Part shown: positions 1-50,700 of the stretch, piece by piece
How the letters are laid out: each line of letters opens with the position of its first letter
Numbering within the stretch: position 1 is the stretch's first letter
DNA from: Christensenellales bacterium
GTDB lineage: Bacteria; Bacillota; Clostridia; Christensenellales; UBA1750
Direction of reading: 5' to 3'
Length of the DNA stretch: 64,000 nt
Assembly: GCA_050942895.1 (NCBI GenBank)
Contig: JBMNOE010000002.1
Coordinates: 130,710-194,709, forward strand
Notes under the pieces: generated by a model
Database searches by the model: none
What the model was told of the DNA's origin: nothing
Seen by the model: only the letters and a program-made list of their open reading frames with translations
Made by a program: the position numbers and the translations under genes

Positions 1-19
1 TGTTTTTTTCTTTCCCATA

Positions 20-333
20 TCAGCCACCTAACAGAAACAGACTTCGTCTGCTTCTGTTAGGTGGCTCTATCCGGGGGAAGGCTCCGCCTTCCCCCGGACC
101 CCCATCCGCAAGCCTTTGAAAAGGCTTGACCAAACTTTTACGACGCATTAAGATTCTTTGCCCGCGGGAGCAAGCAGCTTTCTTGCTGATAAGCCCCTTG
201 GGGAAGCGCCCTTGTATTGAGAAGGAAACCTTCTCAATACAAGCGTGATAAAGCAAAATGCCAGCGGCATTTTGCTTTATCATGCTTGCCAGCGCGAAGC
301 GCTGACAAGGGCGCGGGGTGGGCGGGCCCTCCC
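20..333. repeat. Array of seven consecutive, non-identical strong hairpins or palindromes. They lie at about 22-66 (20/21-bp stem, UUCG-type loop), 71-97, 110-129, 169-187, 211-243 (15-bp perfect stem), 246-282 (17-bp perfect stem) and 284-310.
   Basis: Direct reading of inverted repeats. Arms are perfect or near-perfect with 3-5 nt loops. The segment lies downstream of the minus-strand glycosyltransferase gene. Confidence 0.6.
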
Positions 334-366
334 AATGCCCATAACACAAATTCGAAATGCAAATAT

Positions 367-1290
367 TCATTCGTCCTCGCCAAAGCCGATGGTGCGCGAA
401 ATAATATAAAGCGGGCGGTTCATGACCTCCTCATATATGCGCCCTATGTATTCCCCAAGCACATACATGCTCACCATCAAAACCCCCGTAGCAAGCAATA
501 TCGCCGCCACGATATAGCTTCCTTCGCTCAGCTTCGTAATCATGCATACGATGAGCAGCACCAGCCCCGCCAGCAGCGAAAGCACTCCCCCCGATAAAAT
601 AAACCTTATCGGCTTTGTTGAAAAGGAATATATCCCGTCGAAAGCCAGCTTCAGCATCTTCTTTAAAGGATATTTTGTCGTTCCCGCAAAGCGCTTCTGG
701 CGCTCAAACTCATAAGGAACCTGCTTGAACCCCACCCAACTCACCATGCCCCGAAGGAAAGTGCCATGTTCATTCATTGATAAAATAGCGTCCTTCACAT
801 TACGGCCGATAAGCCTAAAGTCCCCTGTATCCGCGGGAATTTCTATGCCCGCCAGCATGTTCAGCACCCTGTAGAAGGCAAATGCGGTAAACTTTTTAAA
901 GACGCTCTCCCCTTCCCGGGATATCCGCTTGCCGTAAACCACGTCATAGCCTTCGCGCCACCTTTCCAGCATCCCCGGTATCACCTCCGGCGGATCCTGC
1001 AAATCAGCATCGATTATTACTACCGCATCTCCGCTCGCCTTTGAAAGCCCCGCCCTCACCGCCATCTGGTGACCGAAATTCTTTGCAAAGTCGATTATCT
1101 TCACATGCCCATCCCCCGCAGCCGCCTCCAAAAGCACATCCACCGTGCCATCGCGGGAACCGTCGTTGACGAATATCATCTCATAGTCCATATCCATCTC
1201 CGAAAGCACTGCGCTCAGCCGCTGATAGGTGTATGCGATTACTTCCTTTTCATTGTACATGGGCACCACAAGCGATAAAAGCATATGCAA
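367..1290 (-). CDS. Family 2 glycosyltransferase of the polyprenyl-phosphate sugar transferase type (dolichyl-phosphate mannosyltransferase, ArnC or GtrB-like), with C-terminal TM helices.
   Basis: N-terminal VVPMYNE...FVNDGSRDGT...DADLQDPP motifs typical of GT2, and a hydrophobic C-terminus. Confidence 0.8.
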   Translation of the reverse strand: MHMLLSLVVPMYNEKEVIAYTYQRLSAVLSEMDMDYEMIFVNDGSRDGTVDVLLEAAAGDGHVKIIDFAKNFGHQMAVRAGLSKASGDAVVIIDADLQDPPEVIPGMLERWREGYDVVYGKRISREGESVFKKFTAFAFYRVLNMLAGIEIPADTGDFRLIGRNVKDAILSMNEHGTFLRGMVSWVGFKQVPYEFERQKRFAGTTKYPLKKMLKLAFDGIYSFSTKPIRFILSGGVLSLLAGLVLLIVCMITKLSEGSYIVAAILLATGVLMVSMYVLGEYIGRIYEEVMNRPLYIISRTIGFGEDE

Positions 1291-4230: not shown

Positions 4231-4399
4231 AAATACGGCCATTGCCAGCTTTTGGGTGCTTAATCGCCAGAGGATCATTTATGACCATGTTTCATTTCCA
4301 TAAAAATGTAGCAAGAAGGAATTTCTTTTCTGTGAAATGCGCGGCCGATGTCAAAAAGCGCTCAGCCGGCGGCTGTAAATTAGTTTAGAATTTAATCAT

Positions 4400-4432
4400 A
4401 ACCCCCCTCACTTTGAAGGGGGGTTTTATCTA
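4400..4432 (+). terminator. Rho-independent terminator.
   Basis: aacccccct cactttga aggggggtt followed by ttatctat. Confidence 0.6.
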
Positions 4433-5584: not shown

Positions 5585-5660
5585 TGGTAGGCCATCGGGG
5601 ACTCGAACCCCGGACGCCCTGATTAAGAGTCAGGTGCTCTACCAACTGAGCTAATGACCC
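5585..5660 (-). tRNA. tRNA-Lys (anticodon CTT) with an encoded CCA.
   Basis: The reverse complement gggtcattagctcagttggtagagcacctgactCTTaatcagggcgtccggggttcgagtccccgatggcctacca folds as a cloverleaf. It has D-arm gctc/gagc, anticodon stem cctga/tcagg, a 7-nt loop cuCUUaa and T-arm cgggg TTCGAGT ccccg. Confidence 0.9.
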
Positions 5661-7219: not shown

Positions 7220-7378
7220 TTATTTTTCCATGTTTGTCGGCGGCCTTTCCTGCGGGCCCGCCTACCCGCGCTTCCTGCGCAAATGCTAAACTTATTTTTC
7301 CATGTTTGTCGACGGCCTTCCCTGCAGGCCCGCCTACCCGCGTTTCCTGCGCAAATGCTAAGCTTATTTTTCCATGCC
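7220..7378. repeat. 72-bp tandem direct repeat. Two full copies lie at 7220-7291 and 7292-7363, and a partial third copy is the 3' end of the DUF4340 gene. Each full copy carries the palindrome gcgggcccgc.
   Basis: Period 72. The copies are about 92% identical. The unit begins ttatttttccatg, which is the MEK-stop end of the gene. Confidence 0.85.
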
Positions 7379-15133: not shown

Positions 15134-15204
15134 TCCGCAATCGCTTGGGCCTCGGCCTATGGCCGAGGCCCAAGCAGCACTTGTCTGTTCGCAATATCGA
15201 CCGC

Positions 15205-20561: not shown

Positions 20562-21485
20562 TTAATCCCCCATCAGCGTCACTAAAACCGCCTTCTGGGC
20601 ATGGAGCCTGTTCTCCGCTTCCTCGAAGATCTCTCCGGCGTGGGCCTCGAACATCTCCGCGCTGATCTCCTCGCCCCTGTGGGCAGGCAGACAGTGCTGT
20701 ACGATAGCGCCCGCATTGGCGACCGACATCAGCTTTTCGTCCACTATATAGCCCTCGAAGGCGATTTTGCGTCTTTCCGTCTCCGCCTCCTGCCCCATGG
20801 ACGTCCAAACGTCCGTCACCACCACGTCGGCGCCCTCTGCGGCATCCAGCGGTTTGTCTGTCAGCAGGAAGTTTTCCCCGCATTCCTTAGCGAATTTCAG
20901 CACTATCTCCGCCGGCTCATAGCCCTTAGGCGAGGCGCAGGCCACCTTCATGCCCATTTTCAGCCCGCCGATAATAAGGCTGTTGGCCATATTATTTCCA
21001 TCGCCGATAAAGCACAGCTTTTTCCCATCAAGGCTCTTTAGATATTCTCTCATCGTCATCAGATCCGCCAGCACCTGGCAGGGATGAAAAAGATCCGTCA
21101 GGCCGTTTATCACCGGTATGCTGCCATGTTTCGCCAGCTTTTCCACCAGCTCCTGGTCGAAGGTGCGTATCATTATGCCGTCGATATATCTGGAAAGCAC
21201 CCGGGCGGTGTCCTCCACAGGCTCGCCCCGGCCCATCTGCAGTTCCTTGCCGTTCAAATGAAGCGCATGGCCGCCAAGCTGATACATGCCCGCCTCGAAG
21301 GACACCCGCGTTCTGGTGGACGATTTATCAAATATCATGCCCAGGGTCTTTCCCTTGAGATGTTGATGCTCCCTGCCGGCCTTCTTATCGGCCTTCAAAA
21401 TGTCTGCAAGGCCCAAAATCTGCGTTATTTCTTCCTTGGAGTAATCCAGCAATGTCAAAAGATGCTTATTTTTCGTTTCTTTCAT
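20562..21485 (-). CDS. argF: Ornithine carbamoyltransferase.
   Basis: STRTR carbamoyl-phosphate motif, and HCLP and DxxxSMG motifs. RBS at the internal Met. Confidence 0.9.
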   Translation of the reverse strand: MKETKNKHLLTLLDYSKEEITQILGLADILKADKKAGREHQHLKGKTLGMIFDKSSTRTRVSFEAGMYQLGGHALHLNGKELQMGRGEPVEDTARVLSRYIDGIMIRTFDQELVEKLAKHGSIPVINGLTDLFHPCQVLADLMTMREYLKSLDGKKLCFIGDGNNMANSLIIGGLKMGMKVACASPKGYEPAEIVLKFAKECGENFLLTDKPLDAAEGADVVVTDVWTSMGQEAETERRKIAFEGYIVDEKLMSVANAGAIVQHCLPAHRGEEISAEMFEAHAGEIFEEAENRLHAQKAVLVTLMGD

Positions 21486-21617
21486 TTTTCCTCTCCTGTT
21501 TGGCAAATATGTGAAAGGCTCGGTGATCCTGAAAGGCCGCGTGGGAGGAAAAGCTCCTTGCCGGAAGGCAAGGGGTTTTCCGTGGGTGGGTGGGGCCCCC
21601 AGGCGATGTTAAAACAG

Positions 21618-22802
21618 TCAATCCTGTTGAAGGGCCTTTGAAAGCGCCGCAAGCCCCTTGTCTATCTCATCGTATGTTATCGTCAGCGGAGGCAATAGCC
21701 TCACCTTCGCCTTTGCCGTCAGCAACAGCACCCCATAGCCGATTCCTCTGTTCACAACATCCGCCGCCGTCGCCGCAAAATCCTCATCCAGCTCCACGCC
21801 GATCATAAGGCCCATGCCTGAAACAGTCTTCACATTCCTCATACCTTTTATCTTCCGGGAAATATATGCGCCCTTTTCCTTCACTTCAGCCAAAAACTCA
21901 TCGTCCATTCTGGAAAGCACCTGCACAGCACCGGCGCAGGCGATGGGATTTCCTCCAAAAGTGGTAGCATGATCCCCCGCCGTCAGCGCGCCCTTCGCCT
22001 TTTCGTTAAACAAAACCGCCCCCAAAGGCAGCCCGCCGCCGATTCCCTTTGCCGAAGTCACGATATCCGGGCTTATTCCCGCCTGCATGAAGCAAAAAAG
22101 ACTCCCCGTTCTTCCTGCGCCGGTCTGCACCTCGTCAATTATCAGCAGTATATCCCGCTTTGAGCATTCATCCGCAAGGGCCTTCACAAAATCATCCGCA
22201 AGAGGCAAAACGCCGCCCTCGCCCTGGATCAGCTCTACCATCACCGCGCAGACGCTACCATCCATCTTCGCTTTCACATCATCGATATCATTCGCATCCG
22301 CAAATATAAACCCTTCGGTGAATGGAAAAAAGTAATTATGGAAAACATCCTGTCCGGTGGCGGAAAGGGTTGTCACAGTCCTGCCATGGAAGGAGTTGTT
22401 AAGGGAAATCACATTGCTCCTGCCCCCGCCATACTTCATGAAGCTATACTTTCTTGCCGCCTTGATTGCGCCCTCATTTGCCTCGGCGCCGCTGTTGCAG
22501 AAGAAAACCTTGCTCATCCCCGTCTTTTCGCAAAGGATCTGCGCCGCATCGATGCATGGCTTTGTGTAGTAAAGGTTTGACATATGCTGAACCTTGCCCA
22601 ACTGGTCAGTGATCGCCTTCTGCCAGCTTTCATCGGCAAAACCCAGGCTGTTCACGCCGATTCCGCTGGTGAAGTCGATGTATTCATTGCCGTCAAAGTC
22701 CCAAAGCGTGGCGTTTTTACCGTGGGATACCGCCACCGGAAAACGGTTATATGTGTGCAGCACATATTGATCATCCCGCTTTTTTATCGAATCAAAAACC
22801 AT
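21618..22802 (-). CDS. argD: Acetylornithine aminotransferase. The alternative start at 22844 would overlap the argB stop.
   Basis: Class III PLP aminotransferase with the PLP Lys in the DIVTSAKGIGGG context. Sits in the arg cluster. Confidence 0.85.
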   Translation of the reverse strand: MVFDSIKKRDDQYVLHTYNRFPVAVSHGKNATLWDFDGNEYIDFTSGIGVNSLGFADESWQKAITDQLGKVQHMSNLYYTKPCIDAAQILCEKTGMSKVFFCNSGAEANEGAIKAARKYSFMKYGGGRSNVISLNNSFHGRTVTTLSATGQDVFHNYFFPFTEGFIFADANDIDDVKAKMDGSVCAVMVELIQGEGGVLPLADDFVKALADECSKRDILLIIDEVQTGAGRTGSLFCFMQAGISPDIVTSAKGIGGGLPLGAVLFNEKAKGALTAGDHATTFGGNPIACAGAVQVLSRMDDEFLAEVKEKGAYISRKIKGMRNVKTVSGMGLMIGVELDEDFAATAADVVNRGIGYGVLLLTAKAKVRLLPPLTITYDEIDKGLAALSKALQQD

Positions 22803-22840
22803 CTTTTCTCCTCCTTTGCCCGCTTGCCTTTTAAATATAA

Positions 22841-23710
22841 TCACAGAGTTATCATCGTGCCGATGCCCTCGTTTGAAAACATCTCTATCAATATCGAGTG
22901 GGGCACCCGGCCGTCGATCATGACCGCCTTTTTTACGCCCTCGCGCAAAGCCTTTTCAAGGCCCTTCACCTTTGGGATCATCCCTCCGCTTATAACGCCG
23001 CTTTCGATAAGCCCTTTAAGCTCGCTCACCTTCACCGAGGGAATAAGCGTCTTTTCATCCCTTATATCCCTCATCAGCCCCCTTATATCCGTTAAGGTGA
23101 TTATGTTCTCCGCCTTCAGCGCCGAGGCGATCTCCGTGGCGGCGGTGTCGGCGTTTATGTTATACGCGCTTCCCCCGCAGCCTGCCCCAACCGTTGCAAT
23201 TACTGGTATATAGCCGTTTTTAAGGGCATTTTCTATCACATCTGTTTCTATGCTTGTGATATCGCCCACAAAACCCAGGTCATTTTCGCCTTCCAGCTTT
23301 TTTGCCTTTATCATGCCGCCGTCGATGCCGCAAAGGCCCACAGCCTTGCCCCCCAGCCTTCCTATGAGCGAAACAAGGTCCTTGTTGGTCTTGCCGGAAA
23401 GCACCATCTGGACGACTTCCATCGTCTTTTCATCGGTGTAGCGCAGCCCGTCTATGAACTTGGATTCGATCCCCAGCCGGTTTAGCATTCCGCTTATCTC
23501 CGGACCGCCGCCGTGCACCAGCACAACTTTTATCCCCACCAGTGAAAGCAGCACTATGTCGCTCATCACCGCTTCCTTAAGCTCGTCATTCACCATGGCA
23601 TTGCCGCCGTATTTGACCACGACCACCTTCCCCGCATATTTTTGTATATAGGGCAGGGCTGCAGTCAGCACCTGTGCGCGGATATCGTCGCCTATATGGA
23701 TAAAGTTCAT
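22841..23710 (-). CDS. argB: Acetylglutamate kinase.
   Basis: Amino-acid kinase family with VVVVKYGGNAM and VLVHGGGP motifs. Confidence 0.9.
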   Translation of the reverse strand: MNFIHIGDDIRAQVLTAALPYIQKYAGKVVVVKYGGNAMVNDELKEAVMSDIVLLSLVGIKVVLVHGGGPEISGMLNRLGIESKFIDGLRYTDEKTMEVVQMVLSGKTNKDLVSLIGRLGGKAVGLCGIDGGMIKAKKLEGENDLGFVGDITSIETDVIENALKNGYIPVIATVGAGCGGSAYNINADTAATEIASALKAENIITLTDIRGLMRDIRDEKTLIPSVKVSELKGLIESGVISGGMIPKVKGLEKALREGVKKAVMIDGRVPHSILIEMFSNEGIGTMITL

Positions 23711-44041: not shown

Positions 44042-44638
44042 TTAAAAGTGGCGAAACCTGTATATGCTTTGCGGAAGCAATGCGCAAACGAAAGCTGAAT
44101 AATGTGGCCCGAAGGACAATGAGATCAGGCGCGGTCCGCCCCCGGAAAAGCCGTTTAAGGCTGAAAACTCTCCCATGGGCTGTGAAAGCCCGCGGGAGGT
44201 ATATTTTATATAGCTCTCTTTAGCGCTCCAGATGTCAAAAAATACTTTTTCTGCCTCATTGCTTCTGCTGCCGCCTTTGCAACAGCGTTCCACCTTCACA
44301 TATTCATCAGGGTGAAAAAACCGCCGGGCAATGGACAGAAAGTCGCACTCTCGGTGCTCCTGGACATCAAAACCAACCGGGCGGCCGTGAAAGGCGCATG
44401 CCCAATACTTCCCGCTGTGGGATATGGAAAAATGAACTCCGGGCATGAAGGGAAAAAAGGGTTTCCCGTAAACCCCTGTTTTTATGGAAAAATCCACGGT
44501 TTCTATGCCCCGTAAGCCTGCGTAATGCTCTGCAGCCCTCAGCAGGAGCTGGCGGCTTGTATGTTCGCTTGAAACACAGCACTCGTAAAGGGCTATGTCG
44601 TTTTCACTAAAGAAAATGCTTCCGGTCAAGTGCATCAC
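44042..44638 (-). CDS. Sfp-type 4'-phosphopantetheinyl transferase.
   Basis: GKPFF...HFSISHSG, FDVQEH and WSAKESYIK motifs. Divergent from the NRPS gene. Confidence 0.85.
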   Translation of the reverse strand: MMHLTGSIFFSENDIALYECCVSSEHTSRQLLLRAAEHYAGLRGIETVDFSIKTGVYGKPFFPFMPGVHFSISHSGKYWACAFHGRPVGFDVQEHRECDFLSIARRFFHPDEYVKVERCCKGGSRSNEAEKVFFDIWSAKESYIKYTSRGLSQPMGEFSALNGFSGGGPRLISLSFGPHYSAFVCALLPQSIYRFRHF

Positions 44639-44729: not shown

Positions 44730-47700
44730 ATGGTGAATTCATTGGAGCGCGACCTGTATCCCCTTTCCAGCAGCCAAAAAAACATATGGAATCTGTCCAA
44801 GGTTTATCCAGGCACTCCGATGAACAATGTCTGCAATGTCCTTAGAATCTCCGGTGCCTTTGAGCCTTTCTTGCTTCAAAGATGCATCAAAGCTCTCTAC
44901 GCTGCATTTCCAGCGCTCACCACCAGGATCGCAATAAAAAACGGCATTCCTATGCAGCATCAAAGCCGCCTTTTTCCGGTGGAGGCTCCCTTTTTGGACT
45001 TTTCGAAGGAAAGCAGCGGCGAAAGTCTCAAGCAATGGGAAAGCGCCGTCGCCCGCGAGCCAATTTCAATTGAAAACTCGCCTCTTTCATTTTTTTATAT
45101 TTTTAAAGCCGGCGAAAGCAGCGGCGGGGTCATGATGAAGCTCCATCATATAATAACCGATGCATGGTCACAGGTGCTTTTGAACAACCATTTGATGCAT
45201 AATTATAAGCGGTTGATGAATGGAGATGAGCTTGACGAAACAGAGATGCCGTCATATGAGGCTCATGTCGAAGCCGAGGGCGAATATATTGACTCCGCAG
45301 CCTTTGAAAAGGATATGAGCTATTGGGCCCGGCGCATACAGACTCTGTCCCGGCTTCAGGCGGGGGATTTCACCGGCCTTTGCCCATCTACCGAAGCAAA
45401 GCGCAGCGAGTTTCTGTTGCCAGCCGGCCTCAGCCGGGGGATTCTTGACTTTTGCCGCGAGGGGAATATATCGCCCTTCACGGCGATATACATGGCCTTT
45501 GCAGTCTATCAGCTTCGCGTTCATGGCAGCAATGTATTTCCGATAGGCGTTCCCAGCATAAACAGGGTGAACCACAGGCGCAAGCAGACCCTCGGCATGT
45601 TCGTCAACACACTGCCCTTTTTCACCGTTATAGATGAAGCGGACTCAAGCGCCAACTTCAGCACCCTTTGCGAAATGGTTAAAAACGATTGGTTCTCGCT
45701 GCTGAGCCATCAGCGTCTGCCATATGAGAACATAAAAAACCTGGCTCCCTCGGGCTCAGGCAATCTTTTTGATGTGGTTCTCTCATACCAAAACGGCCGT
45801 TTGGACGATAACCTTGACCCGCGCGTGAGTTTTTTAGGCGAATGGATCCACAGCGGCCATCAGGCGGAGAGCCTTTGCATGCACATCAGCCATCAGGGCG
45901 CCGATGGGCTGCTCATATACTATGATTATCTTCCCCATGCCTTCACGGGCGCAGAAATCGCCGATATGCACAGGCATATGATCAACATACTTTCTGGGGG
46001 AATCAAAAGCCCTAAAAAACCCCTCTCGCTCCTTCCCATACTGGATGAAAGCGAGGAGCAACAGCTCATCTTCGGCTTTAACCAAACTGAAACTACTCAG
46101 CCAAGCGAGAAAAATATTGCCGAGGCTCTGATGAAAGCCCTCAATGAAAACTCCGGCAAGATTGCCGTTGAGCATGGCGGAAAAAGCTATAGCTATGGCC
46201 GGCTTAATGACGATGCGCTCATGATCGCCCGTGGCCTGGCGGAAAGATTCCCATCCGGCGGCAAGGTGATCGCCATATCGATGGAAAACGGCTATGAGCT
46301 GCTAACCTGCCTTTGCGCCGTCGCCCTTTCCGGGAACGCCTGGCTGCTGATCGACCGGGATCAGCCAAAGCAAAGGCTTGGCATTCTGCTGGCCCAAGGC
46401 GGCGCCAACCTGCTGATTTCCGACAGAGCATTTCCAGAAAGCCCGGGGGGCATCAAGCAGGTTCTCCCATCGTCTTTGGGCCTTGCAGGCGGGAGCCGTT
46501 TTTCCCCTCAGGCGCAGTCAACGCCGGAGGACATCGCCTATGTGGTCTGCACATCCGGCAGCACGGGTGTTCCAAAGGCCGTACAGGTGCCTCAGGAAAG
46601 CCTTTTGAATCTTGTTGACGCAATGCGCCCATTCTATTTGCAAAAGACTGTGCTGGCCCTGTGCAACATCGCTTTCGACGCATTTATGCTTGAAAGCGTC
46701 TGCACCCTCCTTTGCGGAGGGTCAATAGTAATACCGGAGGACGGCCACAGGCATGATCCCGCAAGGCTTGGCGAATATATATCAAAATACGATGTCGGCT
46801 GCTTCGCCTTAACGCCATCGCGCCTGCAGGCGTATCTTCAAAATGATGCCTTTTGCGCATCGCTGCGAAGCGTGGAAACAGTTATCTGCGGGGGGGAACC
46901 CCTCCCCGCCGGACTTGTGCGCCTGATGGCCAGGCATAGCGGCGCAGTTTTATACAACCAGTACGGCCCCTGCGAGGCGACTGTCGCCGTCACGATGGGA
47001 AGGGCCGCAGACCGCGATCCTGTCACCATAGGCCGGCCCATGCAGAACTGCCGCATATATATACTGGACGATAATATGCAGCCTCTGCCGGCGGGCTCCG
47101 TGGGCGAAATTTACATCGGCGGCCGATGCCTTGCAAAGGGCTATGCCCTTAAGCCGGAGCTGACGGCTCAAAGCTTTGTATCCGATCCCTTCCGCCATGG
47201 CGAAAGGCTTTATAAAACCGGAGATCTTGGCCGCTGGACAACTGAGGGCGAGATCATTTTTGCCGGCCGAAAGGACAGGCAGGTGAAGCTGCGGGGCCAT
47301 CGAATAGAGCTGGCCGAGGTGGAATCATGCCTGCTTTTGTTTGACGGAATCACAGCAGCAGTGGCCAGCATATATGAGGGCCGCCTTGTTGCCTATTACA
47401 CCTGCGATGGAATTGTGAATCCTGATGCTCTTTTGGCCCATGCCGCAGCGCATCTTCCCGCATATATGGTTCCCGTTTATGCCGCGCAGGTTGATGGCTT
47501 CGAATCGACCGCAAGCGGCAAAATCGATTATAGACAGCTTCCGGCGCCCGACTTGGGCGATAATAGCATTCCCGCGGATGACGTTGAGCGCAGGCTTCTT
47601 GCCATATGGCAGGCTGTGCTTAAAACAAGCGATATCGGCACCCGCACCTCCTTCTACAGGGCCGGGGGCGATTCCCTCAGCGCGCTGTCACTGGTCGCAT

Positions 47701-50700
47701 CGGTTGAGGAGGAGTTCGGCGTGCAGATTGAGCTTTCATCTTTGCAGACCCACGGCACAATCAGCCGCATGGCGCTTCTCCTGCGCGATAGAGCCGGCAA
47801 AGAAAGTTTTTCGGCGGAAATCCCCTTGGCGCCCCTGAGCGAAAGCGCGACATACCGCCCTTCAGCGCCACAGAAAAGCTTTTTCGCCCTCTCCCGTTTG
47901 GATGAATCCGGCCTTGCTTACAACATGCCCGGCGCCTTTTTGCTGGAAGGAAAGCTGGATATCAACCGCTTGGATAGCGCCTTCAAAGAGCTTATCGCCC
48001 TGGATGAAACCCTCCGCACAGGCTTTGAAATACAGGGGATGGACATCGTCTGTAAAGTTCATCAGAGCGCGGGCTTTGAACTGCAGCGCCTTAGCGGCAG
48101 TCTTGAGGACGCCATGAAAAAGTTTGTCCGGCCTTTTGATCTGGGTTCGCCTCCGCTGCTCAGGGCGGGCATTATTCAAGGTGAAAGCGCAGAGCAGATT
48201 CTGCTTTTGGACATGCACCACATCATATCCGACGGCATCAGCAGCCAGTTGACATTGGAGCGTCTCAGCAAGCTTTACCGTGGCATGGCCCCCGAAATGC
48301 CCAGGCTCAGCTATAGGGATTATGCCCACTGGAGCAACCAAGGCAGCTTTGGCCGTGGCGCTTTATCTCTAGAAAAACAGCGCAGTTTCTGGAAGGATTG
48401 CTTTTCAGGCGGCATTCCGCAGATGAGCCTGCCCACGGATAATCCGCGGCCGGCGGTGTTTAAAAGCGCCGGAAAGCGCTATGATTTCCAGCTTTCAAAG
48501 GAACTGACAGCCGGTATAAAGGATTATTGCGCAAAGGCCCACACCACCCCTTATGTGCTGCTTTTGGCAGTGTACGGGCTTTTTCTTTCCCGCTATTCAG
48601 GGGCGGAAGAGCTGGTGGTAGGCTCGCCCGTGTCGGGCCGCAGAATGAGTAGCCTTCAGCAGATAACCGGAGCATTCGTGAATACTCTGCCCATGCTCCT
48701 GGGCCCGAAAGAGGAGCTTTCCTTTGAGGATTATCTTAAAAAAACGCGTGATTTTGTGGCTCTCGCCCTGGATAATCAGGATATTCCCTTCGAGGAAATA
48801 ATGGCCATATCCGGGGCTTCCCACAGCCGCCGGAGCAATCCCCTTTACAGCGTGATGTTCTCATTCGTGCCTATGGATCCGGCGGGGTTTGAAATTGGCG
48901 GATGCGCGATGACGCCCCTTAAAGTGGGAGGGGGCAATGTGAAGATGGATCTTCATCTGGAGGCGACCATGTCCAAAGACAGCCTTAAGCTATCATTGGA
49001 GTATGCCGCCGCCCTTTTTGACGAACAGACCATCGGTCTGTATGCTCGCGGGCTGGAAGCGACCATGGTCGGCATTGTGGGCGGCGCTGGTCGGTCTCTG
49101 CGGGAAGTACCCGTCTTATCCTCTGCGGACAAGGCCAGGCTTTTTACAATCCCCTGGAATATGCGTGCGCCCTATGACGACCTGCCGGTGGATCAGGCTA
49201 TCGACAGCTTCGCAAAAGCCATTCCCGATGCCGCCGCCATCCGCTGGGGAGAAAACCAAAGCCATAGCTTCATCCGCGTGAAGGAGATGTCCGATAATCT
49301 GGCTGTTAACCTGCAAAAACAGGGTGTCCAGCCGGGCGATGTGGTGGCATTCATGCCCAGGCGGGACGGCGATATGATCCCCACTATGATCGGCATTTTG
49401 AAAGCCGGTGCGGCATATCTGCCGGTGGAGCCCTCCTTCCCTGCGGATAGAATAATATATATGCTTGAAATGGCAAAGGCAAGGCTGCTGCTGTTCAGCA
49501 GCAAAACAGCTCCGCCAAAGGGAATCCCATGCCCCTCTCAGGTGATCGATTTTTCCGCCCTGGAAGAACAGCCCTCTGTCCCTCCGGCCAATAGAAGCCC
49601 GGAGGACCCCTTTAACGTGCTGTTTACATCCGGTTCCACCGGCCAGCCAAAGGGCGTGATGATGATACATAAATCCATCAGCAATCTTCTGGCAAATGTG
49701 GAACCCCTCCTTGCGGGTGAGGATTCGCGGATGCTCTGCGCTTCCAGTTGCGTTTTCGATGTCTTTACCACAGAAGCCCTCCTGTGCCTGGCCACCGGCC
49801 GCTGCGCCGTCATCGCCGACGAGGAGGAGATGCTGCTGCCCTGGAAGCTTGCCGCCCGAATTGAAAAGGACGGCGCGGACATACTGCAGCTCACACCCTC
49901 TCGGATGCAGATGTGCCTTGCCAGCGATGAATTTCGCCATGCGCTAAGGAATGTCAAGAGCATAATCCTCCTGGGAGAACCATGGACGCTTTCGATGCGC
50001 GACAGCATAAAAAGGCTGACAAATGCGCGCATATTCAACATATACGGCCCCACGGAAACCTCTGTGCACAACTGCCAGGGGGATGTGACCGACTGTAGCT
50101 GCATACACATCGGCCTGCCCATAGGCAACTGCCGCTATTATCTGCTGGATAAAAAACAGCGGCTCCTGCCGCCGACCGCCCTGGGCGAAATATACATCGC
50201 CGGTGATTGCCTCGCAAAGGGCTATGCGGGCCGGGATGACCTTACCGAAAAGGTCTATCTTCCCGATCCTTTCTTCCCAGGGGAGCGGATGTACAAGACC
50301 GGCGATATCGGCAGGCTGCGGGCCGACGGCACATGGCAATGCCTTGGCCGCACCGATACTCAGCTAAAGCTCAACGGCCACCGCATCGAACCCTCGGAGA
50401 TAGCCGCTCAGATAGTTCTTTCCGCCCTTGCGAAGGAAGCGGCGGTAATACCTGTGATGCAGGACGGCGTTCCCCAGTCGCTTCGGGCTTATCTGGTTCC
50501 CGACGATGGCTACAGCGAGGAAGGCCTGCGAGGCTATCTGGCAGGCAAGCTGCCCGATTATATGCTGCCTTCTTCCTTTGTGGCGCTGGACGAAATGCCC
50601 CGAAATGCCAGCGGGAAGACCGATCTTAAGGCCCTGGCCCAGATGGATCCCCAGCAGAAAATATTGACTGATAAAATATCCGCTTCGCCGGAGGAGAAAG

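Follow-up and report, generated by a model that had tools for sequence, protein, structure and literature searches.

Repetitive extragenic palindromic sequences (REPs) lie outside genes and mostly downstream of them, form stems of 5-13 bp and are often clustered in both orientations (PMC3733652, PMC2817692). Their GTAG tag may degenerate to GTGG in some families, and a 2013 survey listed no GTAG or CGTC REP families in Firmicutes (PMC3733652). Families of small hairpin repeats have been examined closely in Proteobacteria and in a few members of the Firmicutes, whereas the uncultured Christensenellales, abundant in gut and digester, have not had such scrutiny. We analyzed 64,000 nucleotides of DNA from a Christensenellales bacterium (positions 130,710 to 194,709 of contig JBMNOE010000002.1; this whole stretch is referred to as the window), which opens with a hairpin-dense segment: a 378-bp spacer that leads, on the minus strand, from a family-2 glycosyltransferase (GT) gene to a Peptidase_M29 aminopeptidase (M29) gene. 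Like REPs and bacterial interspersed mosaic elements (BIMEs), the GTAG superfamily and REPINs (PMC2817692, PMC3733652, PMC3116915), the segment is extragenic, placed downstream of genes or within operons, and hairpin-forming. As in REP/BIME clusters, several motif types are mosaically mixed in both orientations; a dispersed motif consisting of GT(G/A)G and a GC palindrome resembles a degenerate GTAG tag and has copies that adjoin hairpins; and the presumed stabilizing effect at mRNA 3' ends would be the same. In contrast to REPs, the six large hairpins of the segment carry no GTAG tag, several having CTTG/CAAG feet instead, the host is a Firmicute, and no RAYT gene was seen in the window.

Pneumococcal BOX elements are modular, of the form boxA-boxB(n)-boxC, and have modules whose sequence is kept in more than 100 copies. 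The segment shares with them a Firmicute host, an intergenic and non-coding composite of few module types, a variable internal module number and strong predicted structure, but it keeps only linkers and feet and has no sequence similarity to BOX. A likeness to integron attC sites lies in hairpins at gene 3' ends whose stem sequences differ and of which only the feet are conserved. We rejected this identity: the stems of the segment are perfect, with neither extrahelical bases nor an unpaired central spacer, only the hairpin at 22-66 happens to hold an RYYYAAC/GTTRRRY pair (ACCTAAC/GTTAGGT), and there is no cassette array, no integrase and no integrase domain. Intercistronic RNase III or stabilizer hairpins are known from the phage T7 early region and the malE-malF REP. 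These too are stable stems without U-tracts between co-transcribed genes, and the longest left-hand hairpin of the segment offers about two helical turns of duplex; the analogy is functional only, the known sites not being dispersed modular repeats.

On balance, we lean towards reading the segment as a mosaic akin to BIMEs and BOX elements, made up of small non-coding modules that recur, form hairpins and were inserted between GT and M29. It would represent an undescribed modular hairpin-repeat family of an uncultured Firmicute lineage, with stems that are unusually long, perfect and variable in sequence. A preliminary description of the locus had set it apart from ordinary REP clusters unless its hairpins proved to belong to a known dispersed palindromic family; the segment did turn out to be close to a dispersed-palindrome cluster, but the family is not a described one.

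Hairpins and fold of the spacer

Six hairpins in window positions 20-334 were individually significant when each was folded alone as DNA and compared with shuffled sequences, all or almost all of which folded less well (Table 1; the three left-hand ones are called HP1, HP2 and HP3). The pile-up reported in the preliminary description is real, although six rather than seven strong hairpins are solid, the individual DNA folds of 168-189 and 316-334 being no better than shuffles. Its perfect 15-bp stem and the perfect 17-bp core at 246-282 were recovered as described, and the perfect 11-bp stem that it placed at 71-97 is indeed a perfect hairpin, but a longer one (HP2). The UUCG-type tetraloop proposed for HP1 gave way to a 3-nt TTC loop, which reads GAA on the gene-sense strand and lacks cUUCGg. 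The single mismatch of HP1 is A.C on the plus strand and G.U on the minus strand.

Table 1. Features at the start of the window (z, DNA fold of the single hairpin against shuffles)
Feature	Positions	Strand	Description	z
Composite unit 1	18-141	+	HP1, CTAT, HP2, ACCCCCATCCG, HP3, ACCAAACTTTTAC	
HP1	22-66		21-bp stem, one mismatch, 3-nt loop, foot AGCC/GGCT	-8.7
HP2	70-98		Perfect 13 bp, G/C-rich, CCGGGGGAAGGC-nnn-GCCTTCCCCCGG	-5.2
Linker ACCCCCATCCG, HP3 and tail ACCAAACTTTTAC	98-141	+	33/34 identical to L163:4500-4533	
HP3	109-128		8-9 bp, CAAGCCTTT-ga-AAAGGCTTG	-3.2
Weak sigma-70-like match	126-154	+	TTGACC, 17 nt, TAAGAT; 9/12 matches; antisense to operon	
Module GGGGCTTATCAGCAAG	182-197	-	Recurs at L163:4384-4399 and at about L163:805-822, the latter seen within GGCTTTTCAGCAAG	
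Three-hairpin module	198-311	.	Hairpins 211-243, 240-288 and 285-309; CTTG/CAAG at each junction	
Hairpin	211-243		Perfect 15 bp, 3-nt loop	-9.6
Hairpin	240-288		23 bp including one G.T pair; core 246-282 perfect 17 bp	-9.0
Hairpin	285-309		11 bp, one mismatch	-3.4
Dispersed motif copy	312-334	+	(GCGG)GGTGGGCGGGCCC(TCCCA); reads GT(G/A)G and palindrome GCGGGCCCGC	
Unstructured 32-nt stretch	335-366	-	Separates GT stop codon from first module	
GT gene, family-2 glycosyltransferase	367-1284	-	305 aa; start ATG at 1284; Pfam PF00535, E 1.7e-33	

Folded as a whole (370 nt), the segment reached -190 to -197 kcal/mol compared to about -111 to -124 kcal/mol for shuffled sequences (z about -12 on either strand), and it was the strongest outlier in a 120-nt sliding fold of all 64 kb. 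Three of the eight perfect hairpins of at least 9 bp in the window lie within it. Within the 1.9 Mb of Clostridia loci fetched, there were six clusters of at least three perfect hairpins within 350 bp, two of which lie in this species and its sister species. The earlier statement that this is more structure than a terminator needs is borne out, and no strong hairpin is followed by a clean U-tract: there were 4 terminator-like matches against a shuffle mean of 1.8 (sd 1.2), and the only one on a large hairpin (282-246, minus strand) continues into CGCTTGTATT, which is not a clean U-tract.

The three right-hand hairpins (211-243, 240-288 and 285-309) have common 4-nt feet, CTTG/CAAG, and an outer stem pairing 206-214 with 306-314 closes them into one four-way junction (fold z -14.6). 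Across window positions 109-314, CTTG/CAAG occurs nine times versus about 1.6 expected and stands at the foot of most hairpins; the four copies within 206-314 permit two alternative pairings of the junction. The same foot is seen elsewhere in the window, at 15143-15175, where a lone perfect 15-bp hairpin with a 3-nt loop and feet GCTTGG/CCAAGC directly follows a sporulation sigma factor gene and has no T-run.

Several other identities were excluded. A tandem repeat, which the preliminary description had already ruled out, and a CRISPR array were dismissed: the stems have no sequence in common within the locus and do not repeat elsewhere in the window. Rfam, to which that description had also pointed, yielded no family at the locus: the only match in the 64 kb was a tRNA (5588-5660), matches in 1-420 were weak and far below threshold, and none of the related contigs L163, L169, L172, L168 and L002 matched a family at gathering or permissive thresholds. 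A small RNA gene transcribed from the sigma-70-like site was rejected because that promoter-like site is not conserved in the other copies of the module; its absence from the L163 copies makes the site probably non-functional. A G-quadruplex is not supported, most copies of the dispersed motif having only three G-runs, and density and distribution are wrong for a DNA uptake sequence or a Chi site.

Gain of the spacer and recurrence of its modules

The spacer, bar one 1-nt indel, is also present in the Logan contigs L001 and L002, which come from two other runs. L002 runs on into the next gene, placing the start of M29 just left of window position 1, the exact GT protein is on record on other contigs, and both flanking proteins, P0001 and P0121, are recorded on one 212-kb contig. 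Since the same sequence stands in two Logan assemblies and its flanking proteins on a 212-kb contig, the spacer is neither a one-off assembly artefact nor a contig end. The proximity to a contig or assembly boundary or a replication terminus raised in the preliminary description did not hold up either, there being no skew switch near the window start.

Two minor observations concern these contigs. The M29 protein of L002 equals P0121 over 307 residues, after which 13 of the last 39 differ at the contig end (L002:2560-2681), probably as a result of a strain mix or a chimeric contig end. In addition, the independent contigs L001 (ending at about window position 102) and L169 (at its start) break inside or beside HP2, which is consistent with a multi-copy HP2 or with a drop in coverage at a G/C-rich hairpin.

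Relatives were gathered by protein searches followed by exact-protein contig look-ups; the GT-protein-guided contig scans gave, among the matches listed, relatives whose identity did not exceed 60%. In ten syntenic relatives (L164-L167, L170, L003, L004, L083, L093 and L160), GT and M29 overlap or lie no more than about 33 bp apart, and in an eleventh (L106) the gap is about 118 bp. GT is 46-71% identical in the syntenic relatives, one of which is a Candidatus Neochristensenella genome. A long spacer besides that of the window was found only in the nearest relative, where 563 bp follow GT on contig L163. This sister species, represented by two contigs from the same sample (L163 and L169, 11.5 kb), has a 78% identical GT and about 70-73% identical coding DNA; its spacer is followed by a DUF3788 gene preceded by a promoter-like site and a leader of its own, and its M29 gene stands at the start of L169. 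Because GT and M29 overlap or nearly adjoin in the syntenic relatives, the comparison indicates that the GT-M29 spacer is a lineage-specific gain. The modules thereby split a formerly overlapping gene pair, and GT/M29 co-expression must change.

The preliminary description regarded the hairpins as independent and their stems as unrelated. We found instead that HP1, HP2 and HP3 with their linkers form one composite, which turns up again elsewhere, at a second locus and in a second species. A covariance model (R1), built only from the composite-unit-1 sequence of the window and oriented along the plus strand, opposite to the GT-M29 mRNA sense, matched L163:603-731 over its full length with 57.9 bits. 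This locus is not GT-M29 but lies between two convergent genes, one tRNA-synthetase-like and one for an iron repressor, and the linkers and feet of the window are kept there while the stems are different (architecture seen at 607-720). Two further R1 matches were L169:1-76, which adjoins M29 on its upstream side and is truncated where the contig ends (49.5 bits), and L172:7737-7796 (35.7 bits); no other full-length match above 28 bits was found in the approximately 2.8 Mb searched.

Linkers and feet are identical among the copies (GGCT-CTAT, CGGGGGAA, ACCCCC and TCCGCAA). In the R1-guided alignment, 96.8% of pair cells were paired compared to 37-50% when partners were slid by 1-3 columns, a figure that leans high because the alignment was fitted to the structure, and 20 of the 42 pairs had changed on both sides. 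The identical linkers are the stronger argument for homology. About 12 of 21 HP1 arm positions are equal between the window and L163, all changes being compensated, and the HP1 homologues in L163 (20 bp) and L169 (22 bp) keep length and position although most stem bases differ. HP2 is identical at 22 of 23 positions in L169, and, linkers included, HP2 and HP3 reach 93-97% identity between the species versus about 70-73% for coding DNA. Furthermore, in L163:4480-4543, which can be aligned to composite unit 1, only the feet of HP1 and HP2 remain. The match at L163:4500-4533 has an orientation relative to the GT gene opposite to that in the window, which would be explained equally well by an inversion or by two inverted copies flanking an inserted DUF3788 cassette. 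A weaker look-alike of the linker, HP3 and tail stretch was seen in L168. This mode of evolution is unusual, with linkers more conserved than coding DNA and stems that are free to change yet have arms that remain almost perfectly complementary.

The remaining parts of the segment, which had likewise been taken as unrelated, are also recurring modules or an insertion into one. On the minus strand, composite unit 2 consists of the C-rich motif GGGCCCGCCCACCCCGCG, the three hairpins that share CTTG/CAAG feet, CTTCCCCAAG and GGGGCTTATCAGCAAG. L163 carries the frame of this unit twice: at about 740-825 the slot is filled by one 17-bp hairpin (about 760-796), and at 4355-4400 it is empty, with CCCACCCCGCG and GGGCTTTTCAGCAAG contiguous (4374-4399). 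The slot thus holds 0, 1 or 3 hairpins depending on the copy, and because its flanks CCCACCCCGCG/GGGCTTTTCAGCAAG are contiguous in L163, the three-hairpin four-way junction is a precise module-sized insertion relative to the sister species. The 612-nt spacer between the convergent genes (L163:592-1203) contains about ten hairpins (z -14) and is partly composed of the window's modules. Together, the window, L163:603-830, L163:4374-4543 and L169:1-76 have modules in common whose orders and orientations vary, as in a BIME-type mosaic.

Outside the two species, the IMG/VR contig L172 (71% G+C) contains a 34-nt stretch of linker and HP2 that is identical to window 69-102 (minus strand) at 32 of 34 positions. 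Pattern scans of IMG/VR gave zero matches for HP3, the 17-bp hairpin, the 18-nt dispersed motif and the HP1-CTAT-HP2 junction, and phage and plasmid collections gave nothing save one marginal 42-nt match in a fecal scaffold deposited as 'Bacteriophage sp.'. Two further patterns were discarded: CCCCCGSACCCCCNTCC was unspecific, with more than 120 matches in G/C-rich and giant-virus-labelled contigs, and the matches of GGGCTTWTCAGCAAGNAAA looked like chance ones, three falling in one conserved homologous stretch of different viral contigs, a fourth being unrelated and none lying in a hairpin cluster.

L172:7558-7840 is a hairpin-rich intergenic spacer of about 285 bp that holds GGGTGGGGGCGGGC in addition to the 34-nt stretch. 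Some giant-virus-labelled contigs repeat similar units of a G-run hairpin and ACCCCC.TCC. A repeated unit GGGGAAACC-tac-GGTTTCCCC-CGCACCCCCTTCC that resembles HP2 and its linker occurs in IMG/VR at L240:2972-3102, L228:2890-2961, L186:2820-2947 and L259:494-602; L228 and L186 are labelled as giant-virus metagenome-assembled genomes.

Origin and possible roles of the spacer

The modules of such a mosaic would have accumulated in the ancestor that this Christensenellales-like species shares with its sister species. Three module types would have contributed: (a) the composite of three hairpins at 18-141, in which linkers and stem feet are conserved but the interiors of the stems vary freely; (b) the C-rich motif, hairpin slot and GGGGCTTATCAGCAAG at 182-334; and (c) the GT(G/A)G-tagged GC palindrome scattered beside hairpins across the window. 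These modules may have spread or been reshuffled as DNA, either by transposition in trans or by recombination or template switching at palindromes, and the complementarity of the arms would be kept by arm-to-arm template switching and/or by selection. Homogenization of inverted-repeat arms by template switching is reported (PMC8604942, PMC5941160). Because the hairpins have no U-tracts and no convincing promoter follows them, M29 is probably still transcribed from upstream, with the spacer read through in the GT-M29 mRNA. In that mRNA, the stems could act as barriers to 3'-to-5' exonucleases or as sites for double-strand RNases, and would uncouple the formerly coupled genes. A DNA cruciform, a protein-binding palindrome or a structured RNA stabilizer, the options put forward in the preliminary description, may likewise follow from such a mosaic.

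We also considered a bolder and decidedly doubtful extension, in which conserved feet and linkers provide a scaffold, and long perfect hairpins are written, collapsed or rewritten in its slots. CTTG/CAAG would then be the recognition or nicking tag of an HUH/Y1-type single-strand DNA enzyme, or a template-switching microhomology, and the whole would amount to a clostridial counterpart of REP/RAYT acting on hairpins of variable sequence.

A number of observations weigh against the mosaic. The stems, at 13-23 bp versus 5-13 bp in REPs, are longer, more perfect and more variable between copies, and within the 64 kb the large stems and linkers each occur only once. Recurrence comes from one sister species, known from two contigs, and from weaker matches, among which those in L172 and the giant-virus-labelled contigs may be convergent because G/C-run sequence is frequent in GC-rich DNA. 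The 34 mid-sized open reading frames (ORFs) scanned contained no transposase, integrase or Y1/RAYT domain, the window being a few per cent of the genome. Finally, the copy upstream of M29 is positionally conserved in both species, which fits a locus-specific function equally well.

Such a function is the basis of an alternative that we judge unlikely but worth weighing, namely that the minus-strand GT-M29 transcript carries the segment as a cis-acting RNA element dedicated to it. Such an element could be an intercistronic processing or stability site, in which RNase III cuts the 20-22-bp HP1 and protective 3' hairpins stay on the GT message, or a structured leader that controls M29 translation. 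In both species, 35-50 nt separate HP2 and HP1 from the M29 start codon downstream, and the ribosome-binding site GAGGTGAAACATG is identical; the length of HP1 is constant despite its change in sequence, and read-through is expected in the absence of U-tracts. Read on the strand that has the mRNA sense in the window and L169, the four transition mismatches in copies of the composite unit are all G.U, which weakly supports some RNA-level constraint. On the other hand, the composite also stands at an unrelated L163 locus, where it immediately follows an opposite-strand gene, the element is missing in all other relatives, where the genes are simply adjacent, and no Rfam family matches. G.U pairs are almost absent (1 of 156 cells in the composite-unit alignment), a scarcity that speaks against a structured RNA gene of the classical kind, and neither strand folds better than the other. 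The equal stability of both strands, together with near-perfect Watson-Crick stems and 3-nt loops, would instead be expected of an element that acts as DNA, such as cruciform-extruding palindromes or binding sites for nucleoid proteins, topoisomerases or recombinases. BIMEs bind gyrase and IHF. Linker and foot sequences that are more conserved than coding DNA, copies in both orientations and a four-way junction with exchangeable CTTG/CAAG feet are in keeping with such an element, which we nevertheless consider improbable: no gene for a binding protein or recombinase is linked to it among the ORFs scanned in the window, and palindromes of 29-49 bp extrude poorly without strong supercoiling.

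The arrangement in the sister species suggests a different history, in which the segment is what remains of the untranslated flanks and terminators of a gene cassette that once stood between GT and M29 and was later lost. There, GT is followed by the 563-bp spacer and then by DUF3788 with its promoter-like site and leader, and M29 begins another contig. We give this history as little weight as a DNA-level element, since no hairpin has a terminator U-tract, nothing of the DUF3788 coding sequence is left in the window, an unrelated locus has the modules too, and L163 and L169 may not be adjacent. An assembly artefact or a small protein-coding gene is a far more remote prospect still and is largely refuted. 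A minus-strand frame (ORF 20-370, 116 aa) is open across the entire spacer, and the contigs L001 and L169 break at HP2; against this, the same sequence is found in three assemblies, the ORF has no Pfam domain and no homologue at E up to 10 among 5.8 billion proteins, and the sister species shares only module-sized pieces and no reading frame. The mosaic of recurring modules, if its copy number and mobility are confirmed, would offer a handle on palindrome maintenance (selection versus arm-to-arm conversion) and on assembly breaks; otherwise the segment would be an ordinary lineage-specific structured spacer.

The dispersed motif and neighbouring features

The segment contains one copy of a dispersed motif, at 316-329, as the preliminary description had noted. 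Its core GGGTGGGCGGGCCC has 7 matches at up to 2 mismatches in the 64 kb versus 0.79 expected, 6 of them extragenic and 1 inside a 2444-aa ORF, and a fuller form reads CGT-GGGTGGGCGGGCCC-GC.GGCGATG. The other extragenic copies, at 7254, 7326, 21584, 29660 and 61033, all lie beside hairpins, which are terminator-like at 21584, 29660 and 61033. The tag is GTGG in four copies and GTAG in two, followed by GCGGGCCCGC, and the motif reads like a GT(G/A)G-tagged mini-REP, but its stem is only 4-5 bp. Within the segment, two units of hairpin, G-rich linker and GC palindrome face outwards in opposite orientations (128 to 70 and 285 to 334). At 21550-21600, a motif copy and a hairpin lie between argD (21618-22844) and argF (20562-21506) of a minus-strand arginine biosynthesis operon, and this copy is a second intercistronic insertion. 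At 7220-7376, we observed a 72-bp tandem duplication (2.2 copies, 94% matches) that covers the last codons and stop of a minus-strand gene and a GTAG-tagged motif copy (GGGTAGGCGGGCCCGC).

Neighbouring genes in the window include yabP, yabQ, divIC, spoIIGA and sigE/sigG-like genes in addition to the arg operon; these genes and the names borne by homologues point to uncultured Christensenellales-like Clostridia. The 2444-aa ORF (44730-52064) lies beside a 4'-phosphopantetheinyl transferase gene (44042-44638) and possibly encodes a non-ribosomal peptide synthetase or a polyketide synthase. In the sister species, the DUF3788 gene is preceded by a promoter-like TTGTAC...TATAAT and a predicted RNA of about 170 nt with a 19-bp closing stem (GGAGGTGTGGACATGAGAT/ATCTCATGTCCACACCACC; L163:4590-4775); this stretch has no Rfam match and may be an undescribed leader or riboswitch. 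Back-to-back perfect hairpins, of up to 26 bp and with sequences unrelated to those of the window, were also seen in two more distant Christensenellales-like genomes (L004:19090-19330 and L021:19620-19860), where they adjoin G-rich tracts and are enclosed by outer stems.

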